Sequence record: NZ_OX291475.1
Strand: one strand, 5' to 3'
DNA: 64,000 bases
From: a plasmid
Shown: positions 22,905-37,849 of the stretch, in pieces
Position numbering within the stretch: the first letter of the stretch is position 1
Layout: every line of letters starts with the position of its first letter
Position numbers and translations under genes: made by a program
The notes under the pieces: model-generated
The model's database searches: none
Seen by the model: the letters and a program-made list of their open reading frames with translations, nothing else
Told to the model about the DNA's origin: nothing

Positions 22905-23246
22905 ATGGCAGCAAAAAATCAGTACAGCTCAGAGCAATTAGAATTGGCTAAAGTTCAGCTTGATGAGCTTCCAGATTTGAGCAAAGAAAGACTCACTGGA
23001 AAAGAAGTTCTGGAAGGATTGAAAGACAAAATCATTGTATTGGCTACGCAAAAAGGGTACACCGCCAAGGACATTAAATCCGCCCTGGAAGCATGCGAAA
23101 TCACGGTCAGTGAACGTTCCATTCAGGACATTATAAAAAGCACAGCTTCCTCGAAGAGGAAAACAGCAACGCCACGTAAGTTGAAAACGATAAATAATGT
23201 AAAACCTGATTCAGTTCAGAGTGGTAATTCGGCTACACAGAACTAA
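22905..23246 (+). CDS. Hypothetical protein (113 aa)
   Basis: RBS GGAG plus ATG. The listed ORF begins further upstream. Confidence 0.4.
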   Translation: MAAKNQYSSEQLELAKVQLDELPDLSKERLTGKEVLEGLKDKIIVLATQKGYTAKDIKSALEACEITVSERSIQDIIKSTASSKRKTATPRKLKTINNVKPDSVQSGNSATQN

Positions 23247-23377: not shown

Positions 23378-23680
23378 TCACCAGTAATACGTGGGCATCT
23401 CGTCTATTGTATCCCCATCAGCATCAAACTGAATCATGTTCAAATCGTGCTTAAGTATCATTGAATAGACAAACTTTCTAAATGCCTTTGACAATCCTAA
23501 CGCCTTCAATCGCAAAACGATGTATCGGTATCCCCACAGGTCAATAACAAACCCATACTCATATTCCATGATCCAGTTGTACTTCTCTTTAGCAATCAGC
23601 CCAAGAACCTCATTGTCTGCAAATGTCATGTGTGCCGTGCTGCACACCAGACACCGCTTTATCTCGACGGTTTTTCTCAT
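23378..23680 (-). CDS. Small hypothetical protein (100 aa), downstream partner of the DUF932 gene
   Basis: RBS AAGGA. It follows the DUF932 gene as in CP4-like islands. Confidence 0.45.
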   Translation of the reverse strand: MRKTVEIKRCLVCSTAHMTFADNEVLGLIAKEKYNWIMEYEYGFVIDLWGYRYIVLRLKALGLSKAFRKFVYSMILKHDLNMIQFDADGDTIDEMPTYYW

Positions 23681-23727
23681 CTACAAATCCTTATGGGCGG
23701 CACGTGACCACCGCCCATATACAATAA

Positions 23728-24546
23728 TTATTTCAATGCTTTCATCGCTTCGGCCATTTTCCACAATGCATTATTGAGTTTGATATCACCCGTAATGCCA
23801 TTCACTGCCCGCGTTCGACTACGTTTCCCTTTCGCGTTTCGACCATCAATCCCCCCCTTGATCATGTTCTCCTGGACACGTTGATAGGTTGTCCATAAGT
23901 CCGGGTTATTGTCCTCTCTGCGCCTTGCCTGCAACACTTGTTCTGCGGAAATGGGTTGATGCGTGTCGAAGTATTTGTAACCCAATGCAGCATCTGCGTA
24001 GAGCATTTGCTCATCACGATTTAACGTTATGGATTTCATCTCTTCACGTGATTCTGTCACTTTATCGAACAAGCCCAACACCTCATAAGCCCCATCGATA
24101 ACTTGCCCAACCACGTCTCCCTTGTGAGGTACACGAACTTCACCGAACGTATCACCGCACACCAAACCGTTATTGCACACGAAACGGAAAACGCCGGGGA
24201 TCATTTGGTAACTGCTGCTGCCGTCATGACTGTTTAGCAAAATAATTTCCGGAACTTCATCATGTTGACCGAAGCCATTACGGCGCAGACGTAGCATATG
24301 GCGTGTATGCCCGCGCTTGCCTTCATCGCGAACTTTTGTCTGACAGGCGTAAAACGGTTGGAACCCTTCTTCCCGGAGTTTATCCAACAGGCTGATCGTT
24401 GGAATGTAGGTATAACGCTCACTACGGGAGGCATGTTTCTCCTCAGAAAAAACGCTGGGGACAAATGTTGCCAACTCGTCGTTGGTCAATGGGCGATCTT
24501 TACGAATGACATTTGCGCTACGGAAACCTGAATATAATCTTTGCAT
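23728..24546 (-). CDS. DUF932-family protein (YfjQ/YafZ-like, 272 aa)
   Basis: Sequence character and length match DUF932 proteins of leading regions and CP4-like islands. The true start is the ATG at 24546 (RBS GGGAGA). The listed ORF extends a further 47 codons through the upstream repeat. Confidence 0.6.
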   Translation of the reverse strand: MQRLYSGFRSANVIRKDRPLTNDELATFVPSVFSEEKHASRSERYTYIPTISLLDKLREEGFQPFYACQTKVRDEGKRGHTRHMLRLRRNGFGQHDEVPEIILLNSHDGSSSYQMIPGVFRFVCNNGLVCGDTFGEVRVPHKGDVVGQVIDGAYEVLGLFDKVTESREEMKSITLNRDEQMLYADAALGYKYFDTHQPISAEQVLQARRREDNNPDLWTTYQRVQENMIKGGIDGRNAKGKRSRTRAVNGITGDIKLNNALWKMAEAMKALK

Positions 24547-24990
24547 TTTAATTCTCCCAAACCCTGTTTCTGGTGTTACTCCCCTTTCCGGCGTCGCCGG
24601 GCGCGGAGCGTCTTGTGCTGTGACATTGAGACCGGTCCGGGGTACAAGACGAAACCACAAGGGCACCACCGCAAGCCGCATGCGCAAGCGAATGACTGAA
24701 AGGAATGAGTGCGAACGGGTGAGGATGGAGGCGCAAGCGAACCCTTGTGGGGTCGACGCCCCGGCTTAGCGTCTGTCACGGCAAAAGACACTCTGAGCCC
24801 TGCCTGTTGGCAAGGAGTGACATCGAAATAATTCACCTGGCAAAGCCAGGTCGCCTTAGTGTTGCCGCAATCTGTGGCAACAGTGAAAGCGGCGCCGGCG
24901 AATAGCCGGCTGCAAGCGTGGGGGTGATTCGGGAGGTGCCGGCTCAATGCCGGCGGCGCCCGATTGCCGCCCTAAGGGGCGGCACAATAA
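24547..24990. repeat. Structured GC-rich repeat element R1 (member of the R1-R7 family)
   Basis: It shares the blocks ttctggtgt..cccctt, ccgcaagccgca.gcgcaagcga, gagtgcgaacgggtgagga and cagtgaaagcggcgccggcga.tagccggctgcaagcg with the other copies. Internal hairpins are present. Confidence 0.7.
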
Positions 24991-24992
24991 AG

Positions 24993-25142
24993 CTAACAGG
25001 TATAACCACGCTGAATTTCCAGATAGCGCAGTAACTGCGCCCACTCAAACACTTTTAAGGCGGGGACACGCGCAGGTTTACGCGCATTACGTTGTTGCAA
25101 GATGTAGCGCCCGATCGTTTCGATATATTCATCAATAATCAT
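24993..25142 (-). CDS. Small ORF (49 aa), not in the ORF track
   Basis: RBS GGAGAG 6 nt before the ATG. It is the only coding-like frame between the upstream 150-aa gene and R1. Product is MIIDEYIETIGRYILQQRNARKPARVPALKVFEWAQLLRYLEIQRGYTC. Confidence 0.35.
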   Translation of the reverse strand: MIIDEYIETIGRYILQQRNARKPARVPALKVFEWAQLLRYLEIQRGYTC

Positions 25143-25202
25143 TTTTTGCTCTCCGTGAGAAATGATGTCCCGCTGCGTTATAGCAGCGGGAAACGAGGGG
25201 TT

Positions 25203-25655
25203 TTAGGCAGCAACTTGCGCCGATTCTGTTTCACGAAATGCACTCACACACGTCATGATCTGGCTGTGTGGCAGCGTGACATGATCGCGGAGTTTGAAAT
25301 GTTCGTCCCCGAGTTTGACGTAAATGTCGGTTATGTTACCGCTGTACATTTCCATCATTTTGAAGGACGAATAACCCGCGCTAAATTGCCAATCCAGCGG
25401 CGGCAACATTTCCAGCTTTTCCATGTATTCGTCTTTGCTGATGCGCTGAACCGGCAATTTTGCCGCATCATTCATCGCACGCAGGGCCGCGTCGAACGTC
25501 ACCAGTTCGCAAGCTGGCTTGACCTGTTGTAACTGCGCCAAGGTCTGGCCGCAGGATGTGACATACTCCCCATCCAGCCAGATAGCCACACCAACCGGCC
25601 ACATTGTCCCCGGCACATAAAAAACCATCTGCTGTTGTTGCTCGATCGTTGACAT
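25203..25655 (-). CDS. Hypothetical leading-region protein (150 aa)
   Basis: ATG at 25655 with RBS GGGAG. The listed ORF starts at a GTG 2 codons upstream. No recognisable motif. Confidence 0.5.
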   Translation of the reverse strand: MSTIEQQQQMVFYVPGTMWPVGVAIWLDGEYVTSCGQTLAQLQQVKPACELVTFDAALRAMNDAAKLPVQRISKDEYMEKLEMLPPLDWQFSAGYSSFKMMEMYSGNITDIYVKLGDEHFKLRDHVTLPHSQIMTCVSAFRETESAQVAA

Positions 25656-25682
25656 AACCACTCCCGTTAGTCAGTGAATCAG

Positions 25683-26130
25683 AAGCCGCGGCGACTTCTT
25701 TCTGGTGTATACCCCTTTTGGCTTTTTGCCGGCGCGGGGTGACTGGCGCCGTGACAACTTGACCGGGACGGGGTATCAGCTGACGATGCAAGGGCGGGAC
25801 CGCAAGCCGCACGCGCAAGCGAACGACCAACGGGAGAGAGTGCGAACGGGTGAGGATGCCGGCGAAGCGAACCCTTGTAACGGCAGCGCCCCGGCCCAGG
25901 GTCAGTCACGGGGACGGACGCCTTGCGCGTAGCCAGGGCTAAGGGGATACACCAGAAAGGGCCAGGCTTTTGCCTGGCGGCATCAGCGAACGACCGCACA
26001 AGCGGTCGGGCAGTGAAAGCGGCGCCGGCGATTAGCCGGCTGCAAGCGTTGGGTGCATTGGTCCCTGCCGGCTCAACGCCGGTTGGAACCAACAGGGCAG
26101 CAAAAACAGACAGAAAAGGGGCCATAGCCC
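25683..26130. repeat. Structured repeat element R2 (near-identical copy of R6)
   Basis: About 435 bp (25690-26124) match 36272-36706 with 1 mismatch. It contains the long imperfect palindrome ttctggtgtatacccctt ... aaggggatacaccagaa and several smaller hairpins. Confidence 0.8.
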
Positions 26131-26233
26131 GGGTTCTTGTTTGTCTTAACACAGACAGTCAGAAACGATTGCCCGGCAACATGCCAGGTAAGAAATAAGG
26201 GCAGCGAAAAAAGAAAACGCACGGCAGGACGAC

Positions 26234-26264
26234 GGATAAAAGAAACGGCGCCACAGGCGCCGTC
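26234..26264 (-). terminator. Rho-independent terminator downstream of higA
   Basis: On the - strand the hairpin acggcgcc/ggcgccgt is followed by TTTCTTTTAT. Confidence 0.45.
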
Positions 26265-26322
26265 TCACGATGTCAGTCGTTAGGGGTTGGTCAGACAGGT
26301 CACCAGAAACCCGTCCTTCCCT

Positions 26323-26766
26323 TTAGATAAACAAATCAGCAGGGACATCAAAACGCGTCGCCAGCGCCTTAATGTGCTGCACAGTCAACGCACGGCGACC
26401 ACTGAGAATGTTGCTGACATTGCTTTTAGACCCCAATTCATCTTCCAGATCAGCCGCTTTCAAACCATGCTGATCCATCAGGGTACGCAACGCGGCGACC
26501 CCGGTAGGGATCTCCGCCAAGCGGCGGTTAAACGCCTCAAATTCCGGGGCGCTGTTTTCATACTCTGTAATTTTGGCCGCAAGCGGTTCAAAAAGCGGGT
26601 TGCTCAGCTCGTCGCGATCGACAAGATACTCAATCAGCTCGAGGGCTTTTTTATATTCAGCCTCGCTTTTATCACCGGTCATCAGAGGAATGCATTTCAC
26701 CGCGTTGGCAAATGTCGCGATCATGCCTTCGGCACTGGCGGCGTCGATATGAGTGGCAACAGTCAT
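26323..26766 (-). CDS. higA: HigA-family antitoxin (XRE HTH)
   Basis: C-terminal HTH (SNVSNILSGRRALTVQHIKALATRF). ATGA overlap with higB. Confidence 0.75.
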   Translation of the reverse strand: MTVATHIDAASAEGMIATFANAVKCIPLMTGDKSEAEYKKALELIEYLVDRDELSNPLFEPLAAKITEYENSAPEFEAFNRRLAEIPTGVAALRTLMDQHGLKAADLEDELGSKSNVSNILSGRRALTVQHIKALATRFDVPADLFI

Positions 26767-27074
26767 TCTTTATGCTCCCTATAGTACTTGGTTAACTTGT
26801 CGTATTCGGCGTGAGTCGCAATGTGCTTTACAAAAAACTTTTGCTTTTCAAAATCAATGAAAGCCATCAACCGCAACGTGTTACCGGACACATCAATCAC
26901 CCACCATTTCTTACGGTATTTGAAGTTATCCAGTGACGGGATCGCTCTTTTCATCTCATCCGGGCTGTTAAAGGTCTTTTTTTCCAGAACCCTCATCAGA
27001 TCCAGAAGCGCCAACGCGCTATTAGGGTATTTCCCGGCAGCCTCATTAAACGGCTGTCTACTGATCACATGCAC
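26763..27074 (-). CDS. higB: HigB-family toxin (RelE/ParE fold mRNA interferase)
   Basis: The sequence MHVISRQPFNEA...SLDNFKYRKKWWVIDVSGNTLRLMAF...ATHAEYD is close to E. coli HigB. Confidence 0.8.
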   Translation of the reverse strand: MHVISRQPFNEAAGKYPNSALALLDLMRVLEKKTFNSPDEMKRAIPSLDNFKYRKKWWVIDVSGNTLRLMAFIDFEKQKFFVKHIATHAEYDKLTKYYREHKE

Positions 27075-27188
27075 CGCAAATCCCTTAGCCCTGTTTTCAT
27101 CTTGAAAACATTGTACCCTTTGGCGGATTTGTTTTCAAGTTGAAAACTATTATTTTCTTCATTGAGCGCGTATTTCAAGCCGCTCCCC

Positions 27189-27917
27189 TCATACCTTACG
27201 TGGCAGTTTATTCGGAATAAGCAACGCGTTGAATGCCCGTTCGTCATCAGTCAAATCAGCTTCAACCTGCTGCAATCTTTCCATCACCGCCCACAGCGCA
27301 TCAGATTTGTAATGCTGCAGGTTACAGCCAGCCATGCGCGGAAACCGCTCGAACCACGCGAAAAATCCCTCGGTCAGGTCGTCCTCGTAAATGTCACGCT
27401 TACTCCAGTACGCATACCATGCGCCGACCGTGCTTGGCGTTACAAACGCCAGTTCGACTTCGGCCTGCGCCAGCTGATTCTGATAGCGACGGCGCTGTTG
27501 CTGTTTTTCCCTCGACTGCCAACGGTCTTTCCGTTCGGCCTGCATATCCCACTTTCCTTCCCGCCGTTCCCGGCAAAGTTCGCCATAGGCGGGGAACAGG
27601 GTTGCAGCAACATCGCCGGACAGCGGAAGTGGACTATATTGGCCACCGCTCTCAATAAGCCTGTCCAGCGCCTCAATGTATTGCTGGATGGATGATCCAC
27701 CCCGCTCATCCGGGAAATAGTTTGACGATATTTGGCGAATATCGCTCGCTAAAATCTGCCCTCGACCGTTGTTCAGAACCTTGAAAAAGGCTTTGGCATA
27801 CGGAAACGCGGCGAGCCGCTTGCCCTGCTCTTTCTTACGCTCGACCAACACCACGGCATGGACGGCGGCTTGCTGATATTCGTTGACTGGCACCAGTGCG
27901 CGATTATTCGGGATCAT
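27189..27917 (-). CDS. psiA: PsiA-like plasmid SOS-inhibition protein A
   Basis: About 242 aa immediately after psiB with ATGA overlap. The N-terminus (ALVP..EYQQAAVHAV...AFPYAKAFFKVLN) is PsiA-like. ATG 27917 is preferred over the listed TTG. Confidence 0.7.
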   Translation of the reverse strand: MIPNNRALVPVNEYQQAAVHAVVLVERKKEQGKRLAAFPYAKAFFKVLNNGRGQILASDIRQISSNYFPDERGGSSIQQYIEALDRLIESGGQYSPLPLSGDVAATLFPAYGELCRERREGKWDMQAERKDRWQSREKQQQRRRYQNQLAQAEVELAFVTPSTVGAWYAYWSKRDIYEDDLTEGFFAWFERFPRMAGCNLQHYKSDALWAVMERLQQVEADLTDDERAFNALLIPNKLPRKV

Positions 27918-28378
27918 ACGCAAAATCCCCCCATTCTCAGCGCAACCGCCAGTTTCTCCGGGCGGGTGAATCCATGACGGTAGTACTCACCGACCACGTT
28001 CAATACCCGATTAATCGTCTCCGGCTCAAAATTGTCAGCGGTATGCACCCAGGCAATGCAGTCGCCCTGGTTAGCGGTTAACGATGTTCCCTGGTACGGA
28101 AGAACAGCAGACCAGCCCGGCACATCCGCCCCCGCGCTGCACAGATAAATCGCGGTAACATCATCCCCCTTCGGGCTAATCCGACACACCACGGGTACCT
28201 GCCCACAAAATTCGCACACCTCTTCTGCGTTCGCTACCCACCCCTTCGGCAGCGCCAGCGCACCCAGCACGGCATTGTTCAGCATTCTCCGCCACGCCCT
28301 GCCCCGATCGCGATACTCTTCCAGTTCGGTAGCACTCATCCCGGTTAACTGCTCAAGGCTCAATCTTTGATTTTTCAT
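27914..28378 (-). CDS. psiB: PsiB, plasmid SOS inhibition (anti-RecA) protein
   Basis: The 154-aa protein is collinear with F PsiB (MSATELEEYRDRG...NAV; CSAG...VPGW). Confidence 0.75.
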   Translation of the reverse strand: MKNQRLSLEQLTGMSATELEEYRDRGRAWRRMLNNAVLGALALPKGWVANAEEVCEFCGQVPVVCRISPKGDDVTAIYLCSAGADVPGWSAVLPYQGTSLTANQGDCIAWVHTADNFEPETINRVLNVVGEYYRHGFTRPEKLAVALRMGGFCV

Positions 28379-28418
28379 GGTTTTGCTCTGCCGCCTTCCG
28401 GCGGCAGCTCCCTGTCAG

Positions 28419-30455
28419 TTAGGCGGCAGCGCGGACGTCAGCAGCAGAATCAGTGTTAAGGGGAGTCCCCGTATCAGTGGAACTCTCCAGCACGGGCTGC
28501 GGCTGCGCTGCGGGTGACATGCAGGCGGGCAACCAAGAGGTCTCTTTCAGCACGGCCTCGGCGAACTCCGCCGCTTCTTTGCGTTTCATGCCCTCGGCGT
28601 CGCTGGCATTACCGGCGCGACCGGCACTGTTGAGTGCGTCAACAATCTGGTCTTTGGCGATGCGTGAAAAATAGTTGGCAGAGGTCGGTCTCCACCAGTC
28701 GCCGATCTGGAAGTTCAGCGCCTTCTCAACACGCGCCAGCTTGGTACCCACGCGGTTGTCATGCAATTGGCACTCTCTGCCATCGAGACCGTGGGAAACA
28801 CAGTAGGCCAGCAGCGCCAGCACGTCTTCCTGTGGCCATTCCAGTAACCAGTCGAACCCGTCGACCCACGCCTGCGGAAAGCGACTCAGCCAGCTCTCAT
28901 GCAGCGCGTTCAGCGTCTGGTTAGCGAGGCCGTTTTCACTGCCTGCGTCCGCGGATTGGTTCAGGCAGTTGCTGCGTTGGCTGTCCACGGAGGTATGCAG
29001 TTCGCTGAGATACCTCTTTCCAAAGATCCGGCGTGTCAATGTGAAGGTGTGCAGGACAAGAGCAACCATCGAATTTTGTGCCAGCGAGGCGGCAACGGCC
29101 AGAGTGCGTTCGGCAGACAGACTGTTGACCAACACCTGCGATAACCCTTTCTCTGACGGTGGGGTTTCTTTATTGGCTTTTTCACGCTCGGTTTTCTCAA
29201 CCAGCTTGATGTCTTCCATCTTCATCAAACCGCGTTGGATATTAATTTTTCCGTCTTGCAGATAGGCAACCACACCCGCCGTGTCGCGTACATCCAGCGA
29301 CCATTTGTTGATTTCAGCGTGTTCGTTGATCTCGGCAAGACGTGCGTTAATTTGCCCGATACGCGGGGTATGCTCCCACTCGTCGTCGGCATCAGCGCCC
29401 TCAAGCTGGCTTTCGAGCAATTTTTTCTCAGACTCCAGTTGATCAACTTCTGCATTCTGCTCGTCGCTCAACGTGGCATGGGCATAGAGCACGTCGAAAA
29501 CCTTTGCATCCTCACCCCAGCTCCTCACTTCCTTGCACCGGCCTTGTGCCCAAGCCCAACCTTCATCTTTAGCGACAACGTCCGCCGCGTCCTGCAGCTT
29601 GGCAAGCGCCATCGTTTCCAACTGCAACCGATTTGTCAGGATGATACTGTCAGCAAACAAATCTTCACGGGTTTCACCACCTGCCGCTTGGTAGGCTTCC
29701 AGCCCAACAAAATCGACCAAATCACTCTCTACCGCTGACACTTCATCGTTCAGCACGCTTTCACGCAACGCCTTGGGTGTACGGTATTGCTCGTAATAAT
29801 GACCCTTTTCCCATGCCTGAATCTGACGCGGGTGATCATCGGTTGCGCCCAGTGCGGCTAACTGGTCAAAATTGATGTCGTTGGTTTTCAGCAGTTCCAG
29901 CAGGGCTGGCGCGACGGTCGTCAACTTGAGGCATTTTTTGACATGAGCCGTGCTGTAACCAAGAATGGCCCCGATCCGTTCAACAGACGTTCCCTTTTCC
30001 GCCATGACGCGGAAGCTTTCCAGTTGGTCAGCAGGCTCCAGATTAGAGCGCTGTACGTTTTCCGCGATGGAGATGGCATGAGCGTCGTCTTCACACACCA
30101 CCAAGACGGCGACCCTGAACTCTGGCGTCACAGGAACGCCTGCCGCAGACCGTCCCTGCTCCATCAGCACGTTGAGGCCCAAACGGCGGGTTTCACCGGC
30201 AGCAACCCCGTACAACCCATCAGCCATGAGATACACGACGAGATTCTGCAGCAGCCCAGCGCCCTCAATACTGGCCGCTCGCCCTTCAATATCTGCGGTC
30301 GTACGGGGCGTTATGCGCGCATTGAGATCCGTCGCAGCCAGCTCTTTGAGCATGACATATTTCAACTCGGCCTGAGCCAAGGTCGCTTCGACAAACTGAG
30401 CAGCCTCAGTCTTCACGATTTTTTTTGCACTTGGTTTGGTCGTGGTCTTGGACAT
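28419..30455 (-). CDS. ParB-like nuclease domain protein of the leading region (679 aa)
   Basis: It has an N-terminal ParB/Srx-like domain and an HTH. The true start is at 30455 (RBS GGAGG). The listed 752-aa ORF includes 75 spurious codons from repeat R3. Confidence 0.7.
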   Translation of the reverse strand: MSKTTTKPSAKKIVKTEAAQFVEATLAQAELKYVMLKELAATDLNARITPRTTADIEGRAASIEGAGLLQNLVVYLMADGLYGVAAGETRRLGLNVLMEQGRSAAGVPVTPEFRVAVLVVCEDDAHAISIAENVQRSNLEPADQLESFRVMAEKGTSVERIGAILGYSTAHVKKCLKLTTVAPALLELLKTNDINFDQLAALGATDDHPRQIQAWEKGHYYEQYRTPKALRESVLNDEVSAVESDLVDFVGLEAYQAAGGETREDLFADSIILTNRLQLETMALAKLQDAADVVAKDEGWAWAQGRCKEVRSWGEDAKVFDVLYAHATLSDEQNAEVDQLESEKKLLESQLEGADADDEWEHTPRIGQINARLAEINEHAEINKWSLDVRDTAGVVAYLQDGKINIQRGLMKMEDIKLVEKTEREKANKETPPSEKGLSQVLVNSLSAERTLAVAASLAQNSMVALVLHTFTLTRRIFGKRYLSELHTSVDSQRSNCLNQSADAGSENGLANQTLNALHESWLSRFPQAWVDGFDWLLEWPQEDVLALLAYCVSHGLDGRECQLHDNRVGTKLARVEKALNFQIGDWWRPTSANYFSRIAKDQIVDALNSAGRAGNASDAEGMKRKEAAEFAEAVLKETSWLPACMSPAAQPQPVLESSTDTGTPLNTDSAADVRAAA

Positions 30456-30479
30456 GGGTAATTCCTCCATCAGTGATAA

Positions 30480-31035
30480 AACGTGCCCAGAATCCGCCCT
30501 ATCCGGCTTCTTTCTGGTGTATTCCCCTTCGGCTTTTTGCCGGCGCGGGGAGTCTGGCGCCGTGACACAAAGACCGGGACGGGGTATCAGCTGACAGAAC
30601 AAGGGCGGTGCCGCAGGCCGCAGCGCAAGCGAGTGAACGACCGGAGGGAAGGAAAGAGTGCGAACGGGTGAGGACACCGGCGAAGCGACCCCTTGTGCTG
30701 TCGGCGCCCCGGCCCAGCGTCTGTCACGGAGACAGTCTCCATGCGCTGCAGCCGCAGACTGGGGGAGACAGCGGAAAGAGCCAGGCCTTTAGCCTGGCAG
30801 CCTTAGCGACCGGCCGCATAGGCGGTCGGGCAGTGAAAGCGGCGCCGGCAATAAGCCGGCTGCAAGCGCCTTGCCTTGACCTTTAGCCATCAGACCCTAG
30901 CGATAGCCCGAAACCCGCAGGGGTTCGGCGGAGTCTGAGACGCCGGTAAACCGGCGGAACTGACGGAGTGGGGCTGACGACCCGGCACCGCCGGGGAGCC
31001 GAACGGGGGCCATAGCCCTTGATCTTCGAACATAA
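30480..31035. repeat. Structured repeat element R3
   Basis: It carries the family blocks accgggacggggtatcagctgac, gagtgcgaacgggtgagga, cagtgaaagcggcgccggcaataagccggctgcaagcg and the ggggccatagccc end block. Confidence 0.7.
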
Positions 31036-31136
31036 AGAGGATGTGAGCTAAAACAAAATCGACGCCAAACGCATCGCCCATGGCTCAGAAAATAAACGTC
31101 AGGGAGAAGATCCGGGCAGAACGCCCGGACAATAAT

Positions 31137-31643
31137 TCAATCAATTGCGCGAAAAATCAGCGCTCTCTCAGGGTGACTTATGATACTGACATAATCTTTT
31201 AGCGCATCCTGACGGTCGATAAGTCCCTGACAGGTCAACGCATATTCGCTTCCCATCTCGGAAACCTTCCAGGCAAGCTGATTCAATACAAACAGGGTCG
31301 CTATAATTCCAGCGGCATCGGCCGAGACCTCTGCATCGAAGTAGTTCCCCGGAATACTCAACCTGTACGAGCCCTCAGTCGGGGCAATGTAGCCCGTTGG
31401 CCGGGTTGTTATGATATCCGTCCACGGAGCAACATGGCCGCTGAGTCCGCGCGGAACCTCATAAAAAGCCCACATGCCCCCCTCGTAATTACTGTGTTTA
31501 TGCAGAAAGCTGATCGCCATACTCTCACCCAGCGGTGTCGCAAACAGCCTCGGAACAAAGGCCAAACGGCGTCGTGCATCGGTAACTTCGATTTTGGTCA
31601 CGGATCCCGCATCGGATTGGACGGTATTTACTGAGGTATTCAT
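31137..31643 (-). CDS. klcA: KlcA/ArdB-family antirestriction protein
   Basis: The 168-aa protein has the KlcA blocks FVPRLF..GE, GGMWAFYEV, NYFDAEVSADAAGIIATL and IFRAID. Confidence 0.75.
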   Translation of the reverse strand: MNTSVNTVQSDAGSVTKIEVTDARRRLAFVPRLFATPLGESMAISFLHKHSNYEGGMWAFYEVPRGLSGHVAPWTDIITTRPTGYIAPTEGSYRLSIPGNYFDAEVSADAAGIIATLFVLNQLAWKVSEMGSEYALTCQGLIDRQDALKDYVSIISHPERALIFRAID

Positions 31644-31654
31644 TGTTTCTCTCC

Positions 31655-31985
31655 GGCTTCTTTATGGTGCCCCTTTCCGCTATTTATGAGTGCGGGGAGC
31701 ACGTTGCTGTGACACCAGACAGCCCCGTTCCATCAGGGGCAGAAACAAGGGCGATACCGAGGCCGCAGCGCAAACCCCCGCCCCTCGGGAGGGGGTGCGA
31801 ACGGGGGAGGAAGCGGGCGTTAGCCTGTACCCTTGTTGATGAACCGGAACAGGGCAATGTCTGTCACAGCAAAAGTGATCACCGCCGACAGCACGTATAA
31901 CGAGGCTCAGAGTGAAGCCGTTGGCAACGGCTTTCCTTAGCGGCCGCCAATGGCGGCCAGTGAAAGCGATCTATCCTTCCGCCCG
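31655..31985. repeat. Structured repeat element R4 (shorter, degenerate copy)
   Basis: It has the blocks ttctttatggtg..cccctttcc, ccgcagcgcaaac, gtgcgaacggggg and cagtgaaagcg. It overlaps the 3' end of ORF 31879..32211. Confidence 0.55.
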
Positions 31986-32211
31986 CTTTGACGATATCAA
32001 TCGCGTGCTGGATAGCATCCCAGTTGATCCCAACATTGGCATCATGGTTGTCATGAACGATTTCCATCGCCGCCTCAATTTCGCAGGCAGTCAGCGCACC
32101 GTCTAACTCAAGAAAATCATCATCCAGCCAAAAACTGCCCACACACAAAGCGTCTTCGGGATAGCGTTTTAAACGGGTAATCAGCCCTGCAATCGTCATT
32201 CGTTCAAACAT
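31879..32211 (-). CDS. Hypothetical acidic protein (up to 110 aa). The 3' end is uncertain because it reads into R4.
   Basis: RBS AAGGAAA plus ATG. The first ~75 codons are coding-like. Confidence 0.35.
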   Translation of the reverse strand: MFERMTIAGLITRLKRYPEDALCVGSFWLDDDFLELDGALTACEIEAAMEIVHDNHDANVGINWDAIQHAIDIVKAGGRIDRFHWPPLAAAKESRCQRLHSEPRYTCCRR

Positions 32212-32264
32212 TGTGGTATTTCCTTTTGTGCCTAAAAGCGCCCCAAAGGGGCGAAACCGCCGTA

Positions 32265-32672
32265 TTACCCGCCGTAATTCGGGACGTTACCTAATACATA
32301 TTCCGGGCCAACAACCTCGGCGTAACCGTATTCATCACGCTCTTCTGACCATTCCAGATCGTCACTGGCACTGTCGATATATTCACCACACGCATAGACG
32401 TGATAACCGCAGAACCCCTCGCCTGCCTCACTGAACGTATGAATGACGTGACAGGAAAACTGTTTACTCAGCGCCCGGATATCGGCACATTCCGGAGGCG
32501 CCCAACGAGTATCAAAATCAATCTGCACAGTCCCTTCAAAGGCTGTCACATCAACATCGGCCTCGTTGAAAAAACTCACTTCTCCTTCGTCCCGGGCAAA
32601 ATCGGTCACGGCGGTCAGTTGATCTGGGTTTCCAGTCACGATAATTCGGTTTGCACACCAGTTAGGCATCAT
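32265..32672 (-). CDS. DUF1281-like leading-region protein (~136 aa)
   Basis: It resembles the small acidic Cys/His-containing proteins common in F/I-type leading regions. The ATG has RBS GGAGAA. The listed ORF extends into R5. Confidence 0.4.
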   Translation of the reverse strand: MMPNWCANRIIVTGNPDQLTAVTDFARDEGEVSFFNEADVDVTAFEGTVQIDFDTRWAPPECADIRALSKQFSCHVIHTFSEAGEGFCGYHVYACGEYIDSASDDLEWSEERDEYGYAEVVGPEYVLGNVPNYGG

Positions 32673-32689
32673 TCTTCTCCAGTCAGGTT

Positions 32690-33090
32690 GTCGGATATCG
32701 GCTTGCGCCGTAGCCAAAACACAGACGTGCGCAAAGCGGAGAATGCAGGGGCCGTACCGCAGGCCGCAGCGCAAATGACTGACCGCAGGGAGGGAGTGCG
32801 AACGGGAGAGGATACGGGCAACGCGAACCCTTGCAGGCGTAGCGGCACGGCTACGTTCGGGCTACGGCGTAAGCCCAGGCGACGCCATACCCTTTTGATC
32901 CCCGCCTGCAGGGCGGAAAAAGGGGAGAAAGCACGAAGGTTAATATCAGGGGATCGGTCGCGGCCGGTTCGAGGCCGGCAGTGACCGTTTGGGAGGAAAA
33001 AGGAAAATGACAATGCAGACGGGAGTGCGATGTTTCGGGGCCCCGGCTCTGCCGGGGATCCTTTTCGTGGCCAGCCCTGGCCACCATAAA
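32690..33090. repeat. Structured repeat element R5
   Basis: Blocks ccgcaggccgcagcgcaaatgactgaccgcagggagggagtgcgaacgggagagga plus downstream hairpins. Confidence 0.6.
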
Positions 33091-33097
33091 CCCTGTG

Positions 33098-33655
33098 CTA
33101 GTTCACGTCGATATTGACCAGTTGTTCCAGCACCTGCAGCAGCCTGGCACACGGATAACTTGACCAGACCGGCAACAACGTGGCCAGCGTAACAGCCTGG
33201 GCGGCCAGCATCAGCCGACGTGGCAAAAGCCCCTGCTCATAGTGCTTGACGGTCCGCAGCGAAACCCCCAGATAATCCGCGGTCTGTTTTTGCGTCCAAC
33301 CCAGCGAGCCCCGCCAGGCCTTCATACCTGCAGAAGGCATAACAAGCGATATCACGCCCCTGGACTGGGGTGTTGTCTGGTCATGGCGCGTTAGTGCCTG
33401 CAGTTGCAAAACAATTTGCGGTTGGTCCATCCGGAGCAAATCGGGGAGCAGGCGGATCAACATCAGTGTCTGGATCCCCAGACGAGCCGATCGGGACACG
33501 CCGCTATTTTCATAGGTTCGGTAAGTCCGTTCTGACACCCCCAGAGCCTGGGCAGCATCCTCTTGCCGCCAATGGCTACCAGGACGTAGCGAACGCGCCT
33601 CAGACAGCGTAAAGTATTGACCGGCACGCCATAATCTCAATTCAAAAACATCCAT
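33098..33655 (-). CDS. Transcriptional regulator with two XRE-type HTH domains
   Basis: There are two HTH segments (AQALGVSERTYRTYE and TADYLGVSLRTVKHYE). Confidence 0.55.
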   Translation of the reverse strand: MDVFELRLWRAGQYFTLSEARSLRPGSHWRQEDAAQALGVSERTYRTYENSGVSRSARLGIQTLMLIRLLPDLLRMDQPQIVLQLQALTRHDQTTPQSRGVISLVMPSAGMKAWRGSLGWTQKQTADYLGVSLRTVKHYEQGLLPRRLMLAAQAVTLATLLPVWSSYPCARLLQVLEQLVNIDVN

Positions 33656-33738
33656 GCATTGCCATCCCTTCTAAAAAACAGGCAATTTATGCACCCTGAA
33701 ACGCAATAACAAACACAGTAACCGGCAATAATTGCCCC

Positions 33739-34143
33739 TTAGAGCAATTTACCCAGTTTCTTACGCGCTTCACCAAGGGGAGCCAATTCGCTCGGCTGCT
33801 GAACAGGTTCGACCGGAACCACCGATCGACAATCATCACCGGACAACGCCGTAATCACGTCGCGGATCGCCGCCATTTCGGGTTTCCAGCCGGTTGTCTG
33901 GCCGACCAGGTTGACCAGCTGCTCGCTGGTCAACTGCCCGTTATACATCGTGGCCAACAACACCGGTAACCGTGGATCGAGCTGATGTAATGCCGCCGTT
34001 GTGATGATGGCATTACGCAGGAAATCCCCGCGTACTCGCTGCGAAATAGATTCAACCACATCCAGGGCATGGCGGTCAGCTTCGCAGTCCAGCTGCAAAT
34101 AGCTGGTAAATTTACGGCGGGTCTCACTGCTGTTATCGCTCAC
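33739..34143 (-). CDS. parR: ParR/StbB-like centromere-binding protein
   Basis: This small gene lies immediately downstream of parM. The GTG start has RBS AAGAGGG and overlaps the parM stop. Confidence 0.55.
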   Translation of the reverse strand: MSDNSSETRRKFTSYLQLDCEADRHALDVVESISQRVRGDFLRNAIITTAALHQLDPRLPVLLATMYNGQLTSEQLVNLVGQTTGWKPEMAAIRDVITALSGDDCRSVVPVEPVQQPSELAPLGEARKKLGKLL

Positions 34144-34145
34144 GG

Positions 34146-35120
34146 TTATCCCTCTTGTTTATACAATGCCATTTCACTCGCCAGCGCCATTTGTGGGCTT
34201 TCGACCAACGTTATACGCTCTGCCGGCAGTTTCCAGGCTTTTCTTACCGCAGATTCTATCAGCGGAGCGCCCCCACCGACCAGCCAAACCCGGTTAACGT
34301 GGCGGAATCGCGCCAGTTCGTTCACCACACGATCGCCAAGTCGGGTGATGCCGTGCTCTATCGCTGCGATAACGTCATCAACCCGGGACGCATCATTAAC
34401 CAGCTGCGACAAAAAGGCGCGATCATGGCGGCGCTGGATCACCGTATCAGCAACATAGGCGCTCGTATCGCTGTCCGCCATACGCAGCGCCGTCAACGTG
34501 GCCTGCGTCACCATCGAAACACCAATCGTTGGATTGCCGTGGATTGCCGTCACATCGTCGAACTGCCCGACAATGACTCCGGCATCGAGCGTCGTGCCGC
34601 CCAAATCGATAACCAGGGACGTTTCCAGCGGCCCGACATTCTCCCGCACCAGGGGAGAAAACACTGCAGGCAGGGATTCAGGCATCACTTCAACAGCCTC
34701 CACGGTAAAGGCCTCCCCCTTGTTCAACGTCACAGGTCGAAGCAGGTTGTCGATTTTTCGCTGAATATTAACCGTGTTTTTCTGACAGTCTTCGGTATAA
34801 AACTCACTGATCGGCAATGTGACGGTCAGCTTAACCGCTTGCGGCTCCACACCACTGTTTAGCAAGGCATGATGCACAGCCAGGAGGTTGGTATCACCGT
34901 ACTGATACTCAATGTTGGTCGTGCTGATCGCCTGTTGGCTGACATCGTCAAAGGTGTACTTCACGCCATCAACGAGATAGTTGAACGTGCGACGGCTGCC
35001 GATACCATCGATTTTCCATCCCTGACGGAAAGAATTGGGTGACAAGGTCGTGCGTAAATCCCCCTCCACATACCAGGCCAGTTTCACATTGGTAGAACCA
35101 TCATCACAGCAAATATGCAT
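34146..35120 (-). CDS. parM: ParM/StbA actin-like plasmid segregation ATPase
   Basis: It is collinear with R1 ParM over the full length (DDGSTNVKL, NLLAVHHALLNSG, VIDLGGTTLD, VWLVGGGA). Confidence 0.85.
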   Translation of the reverse strand: MHICCDDGSTNVKLAWYVEGDLRTTLSPNSFRQGWKIDGIGSRRTFNYLVDGVKYTFDDVSQQAISTTNIEYQYGDTNLLAVHHALLNSGVEPQAVKLTVTLPISEFYTEDCQKNTVNIQRKIDNLLRPVTLNKGEAFTVEAVEVMPESLPAVFSPLVRENVGPLETSLVIDLGGTTLDAGVIVGQFDDVTAIHGNPTIGVSMVTQATLTALRMADSDTSAYVADTVIQRRHDRAFLSQLVNDASRVDDVIAAIEHGITRLGDRVVNELARFRHVNRVWLVGGGAPLIESAVRKAWKLPAERITLVESPQMALASEMALYKQEG

Positions 35121-35124
35121 TTCA

Positions 35125-35330
35125 CACCCCTTTAGTTACTCAATTTGAGTATCATTATAAGAAAAACATAACCCACATCAAGATAAAGTTACTCATATTG
35201 AGTAAATAAAAGAACTCAATATGAGTTTTTATGTATTCACCCGCATCGTTACGCATCAAACTGAGTTACTTTATGATTGAAGAGCCCCCTACTGGCTCCA
35301 TTGATACTCAGCATGAGTATCAATGGAGCT
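35125..35330. repeat. parC: parC-like centromere/operator iterons upstream of parM
   Basis: There are at least five copies of a 12-14 bp motif related to ACTCAATATGAGT (tactcaatttgagta, ttactcatattgagtaa, aactcaatatgagtt, tgatactcagcatgagtatca). Confidence 0.55.
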
Positions 35331-35375
35331 TTGTCGCGCCGCGGTACTTTCATGAACGCGAACCAGGCGACACTT

Positions 35376-35747
35376 TTAACCCACCGACGTCATACAGAAC
35401 TCGGTTTGTGTAATGAGAAATTCGAGATGACCTTGTTTCTCGAGCAGGTGGTCAAAGGTCGGATCGTCCGACGGGAGGCGCTCCATAAAGTCGTCCCCAC
35501 CACATAACCGGCAGGCGTCCTCAAACACGTCACCACTGTCACGGATCGTCGGATCCAACCCTTCCGCATAGGCCAGTAACCGCTTTCCTTTGGTACGCGC
35601 TGCCGCCATCAAATACACCCCTTCATCTTTGACCAGCAGCACATCACACCCCTGTTGGCGTGCATGTGTGATCACCTCAAATGTCTTTTTACCTTTGAAA
35701 CAAATCTTGTTATTCATAGTGATATCCAATTTTTTAGCAGACGACAT
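35376..35747 (-). CDS. Hypothetical protein (123 aa)
   Basis: RBS AGGG plus ATG. Coding-like. Confidence 0.4.
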   Translation of the reverse strand: MSSAKKLDITMNNKICFKGKKTFEVITHARQQGCDVLLVKDEGVYLMAAARTKGKRLLAYAEGLDPTIRDSGDVFEDACRLCGGDDFMERLPSDDPTFDHLLEKQGHLEFLITQTEFCMTSVG

Positions 35748-35762
35748 TCATCGCCCTGATGA

Positions 35763-36257
35763 TTATTTGTAGACTTCGGCGATGACGGTCGTCAGTGCAT
35801 TCGGGTTCGACAACGGCTCCAGACGGGCACTCAGCAGGACCAGTTCTGTCGCCAGTAATCGGGCCGAAACGCTGAAATGTTGATCATGCTGCTTGCGACT
35901 ATTGATGTAGGTCAGAAGTGCGAATGCAGCATCCGGGTGACTTGCCTCCATCGCGGTAAACCCGGTGGTTTCCGCGTCAAAGTGCCCCATCGCTGTCAGT
36001 AATACTGCCTGTCGCCATAACGGAAAATCGTCATAGACACCGGCGGTGTGCAGGTGTTGCCCAAGGTGGTAGAGATCGGCCATCAAATCGGTGAAAACCG
36101 TGGTGACATCGCGATCATCGCCCGGGCATCGTTCCAGAAACGCCAATACGGCTTCCGCCGCCCCGGAGACGCGGACCAAAGCGGCCTCATCCTGCAGCGC
36201 ACTGTTCGTCTGGTTGCTGGCCAGTTCAGCCAGAACCTCTTTCAATGATTTCGTCAT
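35763..36257 (-). CDS. Hypothetical leading-region protein (164 aa)
   Basis: The true ATG is at 36257 with RBS GGGAGGG. The listed ORF adds 51 codons from repeat R6. Confidence 0.5.
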   Translation of the reverse strand: MTKSLKEVLAELASNQTNSALQDEAALVRVSGAAEAVLAFLERCPGDDRDVTTVFTDLMADLYHLGQHLHTAGVYDDFPLWRQAVLLTAMGHFDAETTGFTAMEASHPDAAFALLTYINSRKQHDQHFSVSARLLATELVLLSARLEPLSNPNALTTVIAEVYK

Positions 36258-36262
36258 AAACC

Positions 36263-36716
36263 CTCCCGTTTCGACTTCTTTCTGGTGTATACCCCTTTTG
36301 GCTTTTTGCCGGCGCGGGGTGACTGGCGCCGTGACAACTTGACCGGGACGGGGTATCAGCTGACGATGCAAGGGCGGGACCGCAAGCCGCACGCGCAAGC
36401 GAACGACCAACGGGAGAGAGTGCGAACGGGTGAGGATGCCGGCGAAGCGAACCCTTGTAACGGCAGCGCCCCGGCCCAGGGTCAGTCACGGGGACGGACG
36501 CCTTGCGCGTAGCCAGGGCTAAGGGGATACACCAGAAAGGGCCAGGCTTTTGCCTGGCGGCATCAGCGAACGACCGCACAAGCGGTCGGGCAGTGAAAGC
36601 GGCGCCGGCGATTAGCCGGCTGCAAGCGTTGGGTGCATTGGTTCCTGCCGGCTCAACGCCGGTTGGAACCAACAGGGCAGCAAAAACAGACAGAAAAGGG
36701 GCCATGCCCCCTTCCC
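36263..36716. repeat. Structured repeat element R6 (near-identical copy of R2)
   Basis: 36272-36706 match 25690-26124 with a single mismatch. Confidence 0.8.
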
Positions 36717-36717
36717 C

Positions 36718-37488
36718 TTAAACAGCGTGGAATAACGTCTTGAATTTCGTGACCATATCAACCATACGAAGTCTTTCGCTCCAGTCGTTGGCGTAATAAA
36801 TCGGGGTATGCCTGACCCGGGACATTTTCATCGTCAATGTATTTCCGGTATAGACCGAGGCCGGTAATCCCAATAGCGCAAGCTGGATAAAACACATATC
36901 CGCAGCCAAGGGATCGATATCTGTACAACGGATGTAGAGCACTTGTTGCGGGTTATACCCTTTAGAGAGCAGGTGTTCAGCAACGGCGATCACCATGCCG
37001 CCCGAACCACTGGCAGGTTCATCCAACGTGATAAACGGGCGATGCTCCAGCTCTTTAACATGGTCGCCAAGTGTCAGGGCGGCAATGAGTCGTGATACTT
37101 CACATGGCGTGAAAAATTGCCCCATCGATGACGAGCCAAATTCAAGCTCCATAAATATCCCGCCCAACAGGTCATCCATTCCCCCTTCCATCGCGCCGAT
37201 TAAGAAACAAAAAAGTTGCTGCATCCTCTGCAGATCAACAGCCTCGTATCGCTTACAAATCTGAACAGCTTCTTCCCTGCCCTCCTCTGACCGTACTCGC
37301 GCCAAATCGAGTTCGTTAGCCGCCAGGCGAATGAAGTCGCGGAAAACATCGAGACGACGGTGATAGGTCGCGATAACAGAGAACGTTTTGATGAATTGCT
37401 TCCTGGCTTCGCGTGGCGTCATATGCGGCGCACATTGAGCCGGGGTTTCAGGGGCTAACAGTGCATCGAAGGAAAGTTGGTTGCTCAT
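36718..37488 (-). CDS. HsdM-like (gamma-class) DNA methyltransferase-like protein; possibly an orphan or degenerate MTase
   Basis: It has motif X FFTPCEV and motif I LDEPASGSGGM. No clear (D/N)PP(Y/F) motif IV was found. RBS GGGAGA. Confidence 0.55.
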   Translation of the reverse strand: MSNQLSFDALLAPETPAQCAPHMTPREARKQFIKTFSVIATYHRRLDVFRDFIRLAANELDLARVRSEEGREEAVQICKRYEAVDLQRMQQLFCFLIGAMEGGMDDLLGGIFMELEFGSSSMGQFFTPCEVSRLIAALTLGDHVKELEHRPFITLDEPASGSGGMVIAVAEHLLSKGYNPQQVLYIRCTDIDPLAADMCFIQLALLGLPASVYTGNTLTMKMSRVRHTPIYYANDWSERLRMVDMVTKFKTLFHAV

Positions 37489-37499
37489 GGTGTGTCTCC

Positions 37500-37848: not shown

Positions 37849-37849
37849 T

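Follow-up and report, generated by a model that had tools for sequence, protein, structure and literature searches.

Introduction

Frpo and ssi1-3 of the plasmids F and ColIb-P9 are class-1 single-strand promoters (Masai & Arai 1997; Bates et al. 1999). On the IncI1 plasmid pESBL, the hairpins of ardA and klcA are class 2 and that of M.EcoGIX is class 3 of the single-stranded DNA (ssDNA) promoters; their transcription starts were mapped by 5′ rapid amplification of cDNA ends (RACE), and their operons are induced up to ~500-fold 15 min after transfer (PMC12672017). Here, we analysed a stretch of 64,000 nucleotides (nt) from a plasmid (sequence record NZ_OX291475.1), which is referred to as the window. 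It is 100% identical to plasmid pQC08_2 of Serratia marcescens QC08 (AP028558.1, 93.9 kb), which has a MOBP relaxase and a mating-pair formation system of type MPF_I. A first-pass annotation, made from the sequence alone, had singled out seven short open reading frames (ORFs) between positions 23378 and 36257, here named A to G, as candidate anti-defence or establishment genes of a leading region. We consider it probable that A to G are early establishment genes, lying in a leading-region island headed by seven hairpins that resemble ssDNA promoters.

Results

A hairpin element heads each of seven transcription units

The hairpin element is ~190 nt long and is present in exactly seven copies in the window, all on the plus strand and all within 24598-37699. 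The copies were located with a covariance model (CM R1), copy 1 also with nhmmer, and each heads one transcription unit (TU).

24598-24790, plus strand: hairpin copy 1, 179.9 bits, heads TU1
25729-25920, plus strand: hairpin copy 2, 176.9 bits, heads TU2
30540-30738, plus strand: hairpin copy 3, 165.1 bits, heads TU3
31687-31878, plus strand: hairpin copy 4, 140.3 bits, heads TU4
32688-32876, plus strand: hairpin copy 5, 176.5 bits, heads TU5
36309-36500, plus strand: hairpin copy 6, 176.9 bits, heads TU6
37507-37699, plus strand: hairpin copy 7, 142.7 bits, heads TU7

TU1 consists of a DUF932 gene followed by A, TU2 of C and B, TU3 of a ParB-like gene, psiB and psiA, TU4 of ardB/klcA, TU5 of E and D, TU6 of G and F, and TU7 of a methylase gene. 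Every copy lies 16-85 nt upstream of a start codon and is oriented to read into the gene. An Rfam scan of 20-40 kb returned no match.

All seven copies fold as ssDNA into one shared long imperfect hairpin; for copy 2, the z score of the fold is -5.25 on the plus strand versus -2.66 on the minus strand. The covariation alignment, like CM R1, comprised 22 copies from five plasmids of Serratia, Yersinia, and Enterobacter. Its consensus hairpin contains 40 pairs, 21 of which show compensatory changes. Paired cells amounted to 95.1%, compared with 82.6% in column shuffles (0 of 500 shuffles reached the observed value), and fell to 32-39% when the partners were slid by 1-3 columns. Because G.T cells outnumber A.C cells by 38 to 9 on the plus strand, the folding strand is taken to be this strand, the template or transferred (T) strand, and not the mRNA.

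Promoter-like boxes lie in the 3′ arm of the hairpin. The -35 TTG is invariant in the 22 copies, and a -10 box of the form (T/C)AnnnT follows 15-16 nt downstream, in an internal loop. The pattern TTGnnn, 15-16 nt, (T/C)AnnnT was matched by a regular expression in six of the seven copies; in the TU7 copy, the boxes were assigned by eye (TTGCCA, 16 nt, TAGGTT). Copy 1, for example, has TTGTGG and TAGCGT separated by 16 nt, and copy 5 has TTGCAG and TACGTT separated by 15 nt. For copies 1 to 6, the predicted -10 boxes begin near plus-strand positions 24767, 25897, 30715, 31855, 32852, and 36477. Sigma-70-like duplex promoter sites fall at the maintenance modules that have no hairpin, namely higBA (27178-27110) and the parMR module (35181-35154), and terminator-like hairpins follow several units. 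This pattern is weak evidence, because neither scan exceeds chance overall.

The hairpin is related to class 2 and class 3 promoters of pESBL

CM R1 gave three matches on pESBL-EA11 (E values 2e-16 to 5e-12), each just upstream of its gene: the hairpin of the DUF1281-M.EcoGIX operon (76.7 bits, 3271-3456), that of ardA (62.5 bits, 14044-14292), and that of klcA (58.2 bits, 7097-7345). For class 1, ColIb Frpo1, F ssiD, and the Frpo-like candidate 1 of S. marcescens CP047692.1 were used as queries. Blastn with a word size of 7 found only chance matches of 13-30 nt in the window, outside the hairpin elements. An assignment of the hairpin as a canonical Frpo was thus rejected for want of sequence similarity to these queries. 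The Serratia hairpin aligns with low-certainty 'Frpo*' candidates of Samuel et al. 2024 (PMC11541004).

A combined CM and motif scan recovered full hairpins (37-112 bits) in Aeromonas, a Pseudomonas metagenome-assembled genome, Xanthomonas, Pseudoxanthomonas, Methylomonas, Methylobacter, Hydrogenophaga, Thiobacillus, and Nitrosomonas. In A. salmonicida, a CbeA-like orphan antitoxin gene comes first behind the hairpin, followed by a gene for 120 amino acids (aa) and then by ArdB/KlcA. Judged by these matches, the hairpin family is much broader than reported, reaching Aeromonas, Xanthomonas, Methylomonas, and the Betaproteobacteria.

The units lie next to the putative origin of transfer

The hairpin-headed units are flanked by mobilization genes on the left and by a ParA gene on the right. 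The nikA/mobA-like gene and mobC are annotated in AP028558.1 and NZ_MT039196.1, and the putative origin of transfer (oriT) was placed between them from annotation and sequence.

20365-22320, minus strand: relaxase gene, left of the interval
22331-22636, minus strand: nikA/mobA-like gene
22637-22904, plus strand: putative oriT region, the 268-nt gap between the nikA/mobA-like gene and mobC
22905-23246, plus strand: mobC
37697-38494, plus strand: ParA gene, the next gene after the methylase and the far end of the island in the window

The oriT gap contains an inverted repeat at 22683-22701, GTCGGGGC-TCT-GCCCTGAC, which we take to resemble the oriT repeat of R64. The RP4-type nick motif YATCCTGY was not found in the putative oriT region. 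All 18 genes within 23378-37488 are on the minus strand, with transcription towards oriT. The placement in a leading region that had been proposed earlier is thus supported: the interval adjoins a nikA/nikB-like relaxase module and the R64-like inverted repeat, and its genes are transcribed towards oriT. We read the interval as a leading-region island, carried by a conjugative Serratia plasmid similar to those of incompatibility group I (IncI; MOBP/MPF_I); the polarity of transfer is inferred, as no nick site was identified and the RP4-type motif is missing. Close relatives of the plasmid are found in S. proteamaculans, S. entomophila (pADAP included), and S. liquefaciens. At the far boundary, umuDC was not encountered, the gene past the methylase being that of ParA; in a Y. 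ruckeri relative, umuDC is present at the corresponding boundary. The island is an ordinary, well-formed leading-region island.

ORFs A to G are genes under purifying selection

The ORF listing confirmed all seven ORFs at the positions given by the first-pass annotation, on the minus strand. E retains its coordinates and encodes 135 aa plus a stop codon, not 136 aa.

23378-23680, minus strand: ORF A, 100 aa, DUF5983 (YeeW/Aec77-like), second gene of TU1
24993-25142, minus strand: ORF B, 49 aa, YdaB/YdfB/YgdA family, second gene of TU2
25203-25655, minus strand: ORF C, 150 aa, distant DUF1419 relative, two-domain alpha/beta protein, first gene of TU2
31879-32211, minus strand: ORF D, 110 aa, no Pfam family, second gene of TU5
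32265-32672, minus strand: ORF E, 135 aa, 'mini' DUF1281/YubB, first gene of TU5
35376-35747, minus strand: ORF F, 123 aa, DUF3085, second gene of TU6
35763-36257, minus strand: ORF G, 164 aa, lineage-restricted orphan, predicted all-helical, first gene of TU6

To compare selection, ratios of nonsynonymous to synonymous substitution rates (dN/dS, pairwise Nei-Gojobori) were calculated with loci of S. proteamaculans, a second S. marcescens plasmid, and Yersinia ruckeri. They range from 0.04 to 0.27 for A to G and from 0.03 to 0.25 for the reference genes psiA, psiB, ParB, parM, methylase, and DUF932. Gene order and orientation are kept in the related Serratia and Yersinia plasmids. A to G are real genes under purifying selection, not chance ORFs. 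The earlier remark that each has its own repeat element or a strong ribosome-binding site holds true: a repeat copy immediately precedes C, E, and G, and the second genes A, B, D, and F have Shine-Dalgarno-like sequences, that of F being weak. C has an alternative GTG start at 25661, its 150 aa being counted from ATG.

The longer frames called mechanically for E (169 aa), G (215 aa), and ParB (752 aa) arise by read-through into the repeat, and their N-termini are not the true ones. The GC-rich hairpins yield long spurious ORFs on both strands, such as frames of 157-159 aa and the 752-aa 'extended' ParB, at sites that include 25679-26152, 36226-36705, 28419-30677, and 24576-24947, and these could deceive gene-calling programs; in one relative, the annotation places a 'hypothetical protein' across a hairpin element.

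Six of the seven ORFs belong to described families

In AP028558.1, all seven ORFs are annotated as hypothetical proteins, and the first-pass annotation had found no recognisable function in them. Six of them do fall into described families (DUF5983, YgdA/YdfB, DUF1419-like, DUF1281/YubB, DUF3085, and a widespread unassigned family), none of which has a known function. The families of A, B, C, and E are leading-region-enriched and uncharacterised (Samuel et al. 2024, PMC11541004). PADLOC matched none of the seven, an NCBIfam scan gave nothing meaningful, and no DNA-binding or enzymatic motif was detected in A to G with Pfam and NCBIfam. Sequence searches of the PDB with A, C, D, E, F, and G returned Api92 for E as the sole match. 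A literature search on the functions of ygdA, ydfB, yubP, DUF932, and DUF1380 produced nothing functional.

ORF A matches DUF5983 over its full length (PF19419, E 5e-16, 59.2 bits against a 27-bit cut-off) and corresponds to phrog_5003; its dN/dS is 0.07. The family is #72 in Supplementary Table 1 of Samuel et al. 2024 (PMC11541004). Elsewhere, DUF5983 is consistently found beside cbtA/cbeA, in CP4-44-type islands.

ORF B is similar to the C-terminal half of IncI YgdA (pN333; 40% identity over 43 aa, pairwise BLASTP E 6e-10), with which it shares the motif RVPA(L/M)KV.EW..LLR.LEI.R. No curated model exists for the YdaB/YdfB/YgdA family, and membership was judged by this BLASTP similarity. With 4739 members, the family is #1 and the largest in Supplementary Table 1 of Samuel et al. 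2024 (PMC11541004). Relatives of B were found in 2325 plasmids by tblastn, and its dN/dS is 0.04. Short B-like ORFs follow a C-like gene in IncF plasmids of Klebsiella and Enterobacter. The idea of C and B as a universally conserved pair is weakened by the IncI ygdA, which follows ygcA, a gene not homologous to C. The 60-nt gap between C and B contains a 9-bp GC-rich hairpin (TCCCGCTGC...GCAGCGGGA) at 25168-25191, which could be an attenuator or processing site within TU2.

ORF C scores 14.3 bits against DUF1419 (PF07215, E 0.049), compared with a cut-off of 23 bits. Five of seven members of its family likewise match PF07215 below threshold, with a best E value of 4e-4, and several of its 257 homologues carry a precomputed DUF1419 (PF07215) annotation. 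C is best regarded as a remote DUF1419 relative, not a formal family member. It has tblastn matches in 1624 plasmids and a dN/dS of 0.09-0.11. Its AlphaFold2 (AF2) model has a predicted local distance difference test (pLDDT) score of 91.3, and its full-length structural matches are five uncharacterised phage proteins only.

ORF D has an N-terminal domain of ~75 aa that is conserved in 869 plasmids (tblastn), and its last ~30 aa (residues ~80-110) are unconserved and run into element copy 4. It is 56% identical to the C-terminal half of a 156-aa Salmonella IncFII protein encoded beside umuDC and 35% identical to a 78-aa E. coli protein; it corresponds to phrog_10258 and has a dN/dS of 0.21-0.27. 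The DUF1380 label that the Prokaryotic Genome Annotation Pipeline (PGAP) gives to the 78-aa relative was rejected, the relative scoring 15.2 bits against a 26-bit cut-off. D itself has no Pfam match, and BLASTP showed no similarity between it and two pESBL DUF1380 proteins. On the E. coli IncFIB plasmid CP057716.1 (4992-5545), the 78-aa relative of D is followed by a DUF5983 protein related to A, with overlapping stop and start codons. The D-like and A-like families are thus adjacent on that plasmid and lie in different units here.

ORF E matches DUF1281_C (PF18406, E 4e-13, 49.5 bits against a 22.8-bit cut-off) and the Api92 structure 2IJR (E 2e-5). Alignment with a 309-aa Y. ruckeri protein shows that E keeps the N-terminal 29 aa (the MPNWCANR strand) and the C-terminal ferredoxin-like domain and is without the ~170-aa central part. 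Its isoelectric point (pI) is 4.05 and its net charge -20; across the DUF1281 family, the pI is 4.05-4.35 and the net charge -20 to -30. E is 41% identical to the DUF1281 protein of pESBL, whose gene is the first after the validated class-3 promoter. The short form is kept in three Serratia lineages, and dN/dS is 0.11-0.17.

ORF F matches DUF3085 (PF11284, E 2.9e-15, 56.6 bits against a 25-bit cut-off), with a dN/dS of 0.09-0.13. DUF3085 is the Pfam family most enriched in broad-host-range enterobacterial plasmids, often beside RadC (2026 Nucleic Acids Research paper).

ORF G occurs in 69 plasmids, all of Serratia or Yersinia, as full-length proteins that are 42-97% identical. It has 10 clusters among 5.8 billion proteins, and a full HMMER scan of 1.84 billion gave three strong representatives plus a few weak matches without Pfam assignment. 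TPR and BfiI matches in that scan are spurious, and sub-threshold Pfam hints (PhyR sigma-like, E 0.015; Rsd/AlgQ, E 0.18) are not credible. No Pfam, PDB, or PADLOC match was obtained for G, and its dN/dS is 0.17-0.22.

Other genes of the interval

The remaining genes of the interval are as follows.

23728-24546, minus strand: DUF932 (YafZ/YubP family), Pfam PF06067, E 1.4e-50, first gene of TU1
26323-27074, minus strand: higB-higA toxin-antitoxin genes, Pfam HigB_toxin (8e-24) and HTH_3, without a hairpin
27189-27917, minus strand: psiA, named from homologue annotation, TU3
27914-28378, minus strand: psiB, named from homologue annotation, TU3
28419-30455, minus strand: ParB-like gene, 678 aa, weak Pfam ParB matches only, first gene of TU3
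31137-31643, minus strand: ardB/klcA antirestriction gene, Pfam PF03230 Antirestrict, E 1.7e-17, TU4
33098-33655, minus strand: gene for a 185-aa protein with two helix-turn-helix domains (Pfam HTH_3 twice) and sub-threshold HipB/MqsA-type antitoxin matches
33739-34143, minus strand: parR/StbB-like gene, Pfam Plasmid_stab_B, 6.5e-29
34146-35120, minus strand: parM (StbA-like), from annotation
36718-37488, minus strand: orphan N-6 DNA methylase, Pfam N6_Mtase (9.5e-10) and PGAP name in NZ_MT039196.1, TU7

The known genes listed by the first-pass annotation (klcA/ardB, psiB-psiA, higBA, the methylase-like gene, and DUF932) are borne out by Pfam and homologue annotation. It had omitted the parM/parR operon and the gene of the 185-aa protein, which sit in the middle of the interval without a hairpin; that protein might be an orphan antitoxin-like regulator. 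DUF932 is a large leading-region family in Supplementary Table 1 of Samuel et al. 2024 (PMC11541004). psiB and psiA are 93-95% identical to PGAP-named genes, and the TU3 genes show 90-95% identity to NZ_MT039196.1 by tblastn.

The ParB-like protein is 32-33% identical to IncI and IncF proteins encoded at the same position upstream of psiB, the IncI one being YfhA. The YfjB gene of F occupies the same position. YfjB, or HerB, is a CTP-binding ParB-like protein that reprograms host transcription and lowers the cost of acquisition (2026 preprint). Of the earlier label 'ParB-like nuclease', the first part agrees with the weak Pfam matches; 'nuclease' may be wrong, because YfjB/HerB is a reprogrammer of host transcription.

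The ArdB/KlcA protein is 32% identical to KlcA of pESBL. The PGAP label 'ArdA' belongs to the genes of NZ_MT039196.1 and L004, and the gene found here is ArdB/KlcA (PF03230). When the whole window was searched by tblastn with pESBL proteins, neither ssb nor ArdA nor DUF905 was found. A region without ssb is unusual for IncI/IncF-like leading regions, where ssb normally lies beside psiB.

Exchange of hairpin-headed units and a second repeat

The segments 25692-25991 and 36272-36571, which contain copies 2 and 6 (TU2 and TU6), share 300 nt at 100% identity, and the other copies differ by 15-40%. Identity over such a length points to recent gene conversion or recombination between the two elements, which are 10.6 kb apart. 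Where S. proteamaculans NZ_MT039196.1 (11409-13096) has a hairpin, ArdA, and a 66-aa gene, the window (30591-32219) has D, a hairpin, and ardB/klcA instead, and one breakpoint of this swap lies inside hairpin copy 3, at ~30591. In the Y. ruckeri relative, ArdA is likewise found in the slot beside D/E. By this comparison, hairpin-headed units seem to be exchanged as cassettes.

A second, unrelated repeat of ~145 nt is present at 30876-31020, in the spacer upstream of hairpin copy 3. It has the motif ...CGCCATCAGACCCTAGC...GGCCCGAAACCCG..., and its plus strand folds with a z score of only -2.5. It recurs in intergenic gaps of Enterobacter IncF-like (three copies) and E. coli IncI (5806-5927) leading regions, and its motif ends some 'Frpo*' sequences in Supplementary Table 2 of Samuel et al. 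2024 (PMC11541004).

Discussion

A to G as early establishment genes

We propose that each of the seven co-oriented units is headed by a ~190-nt imperfect hairpin that would form on the transferred (plus) strand. Once the single strand enters the recipient, host RNA polymerase would use the hairpins as promoters and transcribe towards oriT until the complementary strand is made. The seven proteins would be made transiently at plasmid entry and act in establishment, against defence or by host manipulation. Early (zygotic), single-strand-driven expression of A to G appears well supported, because all seven lie in hairpin-headed units beside ArdB/KlcA, PsiB/PsiA, the ParB-like protein, and the methylase, and because the hairpins are homologous to those of pESBL. 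Since A to G sit in four of the seven hairpin-headed units, their products are most likely transient at entry. We infer that the Serratia copies would fire like the pESBL copies and that the proteins would act in establishment.

Several points weigh against this proposal. The -10 box begins with C in four copies (CAGGGT, CAGCGT, CAATGT), the spacers of 15-16 nt are under the 17-nt optimum, and overall neither the promoter scan nor the terminator scan exceeds chance. Mapped starts and induction come from pESBL only, and the presumed transferred strand and direction are read from gene order and the R64/pESBL layout. A to G show no similarity to any characterised anti-defence or establishment factor. 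Structure prediction, which the first-pass annotation had suggested for each ORF, was run on C and G: the model of C, although good, had no significant or informative match among PDB folds, and that of G, built from a 10-sequence alignment, is unusable (pLDDT 49).

Anti-defence or host manipulation

The establishment proposal leaves two roles for A to G to be compared, and we give them roughly equal weight: shared regulation, enrichment, the charge of E, and the phage relatives of C are set against the lack of similarity and the precedent of HerB. That A to G are specifically anti-defence effectors, including anti-restriction, anti-CRISPR, or anti-SOS proteins and DNA mimics, is tenable at a tentative level. 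They share a regulatory element with ArdB/KlcA, PsiB/PsiA, and the orphan methylase, and leading regions are enriched in anti-defence genes (Samuel et al. 2024, PMC11541004). E and the whole DUF1281 family are strongly acidic, as DNA mimics are; the structural relatives of C are found in phages only; and the slot by D/E swaps ArdA for ArdB/KlcA among close relatives. On the other side, A to G gave no sequence match to any anti-defence family, the ArdA, Ocr, and Acr families included (Pfam, NCBIfam, PADLOC, PDB), and there was no sequence or significant fold similarity to known anti-CRISPR proteins, the fold being compared for C only. With respect to DNA mimicry, the picture is mixed: E alone has the acidity, none of the seven matches ArdA in Pfam, and the fold, compared for C, is unmatched. 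The Foldseek comparison of Samuel et al. lists NA against anti-CRISPR and anti-restriction proteins for DUF1281, DUF1419, DUF5983, and YgdA (PMC11541004), and HerB is a leading-region gene product with a different role. The anti-defence candidacy put forward earlier is therefore favoured by the leading region and by the element shared with ArdB/KlcA, PsiB/PsiA, and the methylase, but has no link to a known anti-defence protein, and an anti-defence function of A to G remains guilt by association.

An equally possible account is that A to G are establishment or host-manipulation factors not directed at immunity, which would act by transcription or metabolic reprogramming, on cell division, in recombination or repair, or in strand conversion. 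HerB reprograms host transcription, and for any one gene establishment is therefore no less likely than anti-defence; the F protein also lowers the cost of acquisition. DUF5983 is linked to the CbtA/CbeA cytoskeleton toxin-antitoxin pair, DUF3085 to RadC and a broad host range, and the Aeromonas hairpin copy heads a CbeA-like orphan antitoxin. These are associations only; A to G contain no domain of known biochemical activity, and the Pfam and NCBIfam scans showed neither DNA-binding nor enzymatic motifs in them.

More speculative, and on balance doubtful, is the suggestion that one or more of the seven proteins represent a new type of effector of anti-defence or host takeover, without relatives among the known ones, and that the hairpin units are cassettes shuffled between plasmids by recombination within the hairpins, to which the swap of ArdA for ArdB/KlcA and the 300-nt identity of two copies would point. 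The best candidates may be E, as a strongly acidic mini-DUF1281, G, as an orphan restricted to Serratia and Yersinia, and C, which is DUF1419-like and shared with phages, together with B, its YgdA-like partner.

Priming sites, recombination, and spurious ORFs

A main role of the hairpins in priming the synthesis of the complementary strand (ssi) or as hot spots of recombination, with expression secondary, is unlikely. The first description of Frpo gave it two roles, promoter and source of primer RNA; two of the copies here share 300 nt at 100% identity, and one breakpoint of the exchange between ArdA and ArdB/KlcA falls inside copy 3. Against this stand the constant position of the copies 16-85 nt before a start codon in the gene-reading orientation, the invariant -35 TTG in 22 copies, and the pESBL homologues, which give mapped mRNA 5′ ends and strong induction (PMC12672017). 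Priming and promoter roles are not mutually exclusive. Finally, although several long mechanical frames through the repeats are artefacts, D residues ~80-110 are unconserved and overlap copy 4, and G has very few relatives and a low-confidence model, the notion that some ORFs (especially the 49-aa B, the tail of D, and G) are spurious or decaying and that the repeats are REP-like or terminator junk is largely refuted and highly improbable, given the low dN/dS of all seven, the match of B to YgdA-family genes in 2325 plasmids, the full-length conservation of G across Serratia and Yersinia plasmids, and, for the repeats, their covariation at 21 pairs, uniform orientation, and homology to promoters that have been validated.

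Implications of early expression from the hairpins

If the hairpins act like their pESBL homologues, A to G form a compact, delimited set of seven early-expressed genes for establishment tests. A function for any one family would annotate hundreds to thousands of plasmid genes, because four of the families are leading-region-enriched in enterobacterial plasmids and that of B is the largest. In elements that lack annotation, the hairpin family could also help to find early-gene cassettes as a sequence tag. Published work already covers the concept, the element class, and five of the seven families; the current picture of leading regions is extended, not changed, and the result is useful as a candidate list and unsurprising to a specialist.

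Comparison with known systems

The island shares with those of Samuel et al. 2024 a coding arrangement in which the presumed T-strand is the template, a position next to an oriT that is putative here, KlcA/ArdB, psiB/psiA, an orphan methylase, higBA, and many small uncharacterised genes. It differs from them in having no ssb, no canonical Frpo/ssi (class 1), and no recognised anti-CRISPR; whereas those islands are often bounded by umuDC, ParA lies at the far end here and parMR inside. For the class-1 elements Frpo and ssi, the proposed mechanism is the same, in that a hairpin of the entering strand mimics a duplex promoter and leads to zygotic induction of leading-region genes, but the Serratia hairpin is shorter and has no sequence similarity to the three class-1 queries. 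What sets this plasmid apart is that its leading region relies throughout on seven class 2/3-type hairpins, without ssb and without a class-1 Frpo, and that it has a short, stable isoform of DUF1281 and a single true orphan, G. E shares the MPNWCxNR strand, the ferredoxin-like domain, and the strong negative charge with Api92/DUF1281 (2IJR) and YubB/YfdA/YccB, whereas the central ~170 residues of the ~300-aa DUF1281 proteins are absent from it, and family membership gives no mechanism.

The closest likeness is to pESBL. The pESBL and IncI leading regions have a gene arrangement like that of the Serratia island, and the direction of transfer is known for pESBL. pESBL has three class 2/3 elements together with three of class 1, in contrast to the seven copies and zero class-1 elements of the Serratia plasmid, and its class 2 elements have an apical insertion of ~57 nt that the Serratia copies lack. 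Class 2 and class 3 are treated as unrelated in PMC12672017, but CM R1 matches both. Transcription starts have been mapped for the pESBL promoters, whereas the Serratia hairpins are known from sequence alone. The class 2/3 promoters of pESBL likewise consist of a large T-strand hairpin upstream of early operons, with the -35 and -10 boxes rebuilt in the 3′ arm, and the class-3 element also precedes a DUF1281 gene, as hairpin copy 5 precedes E.

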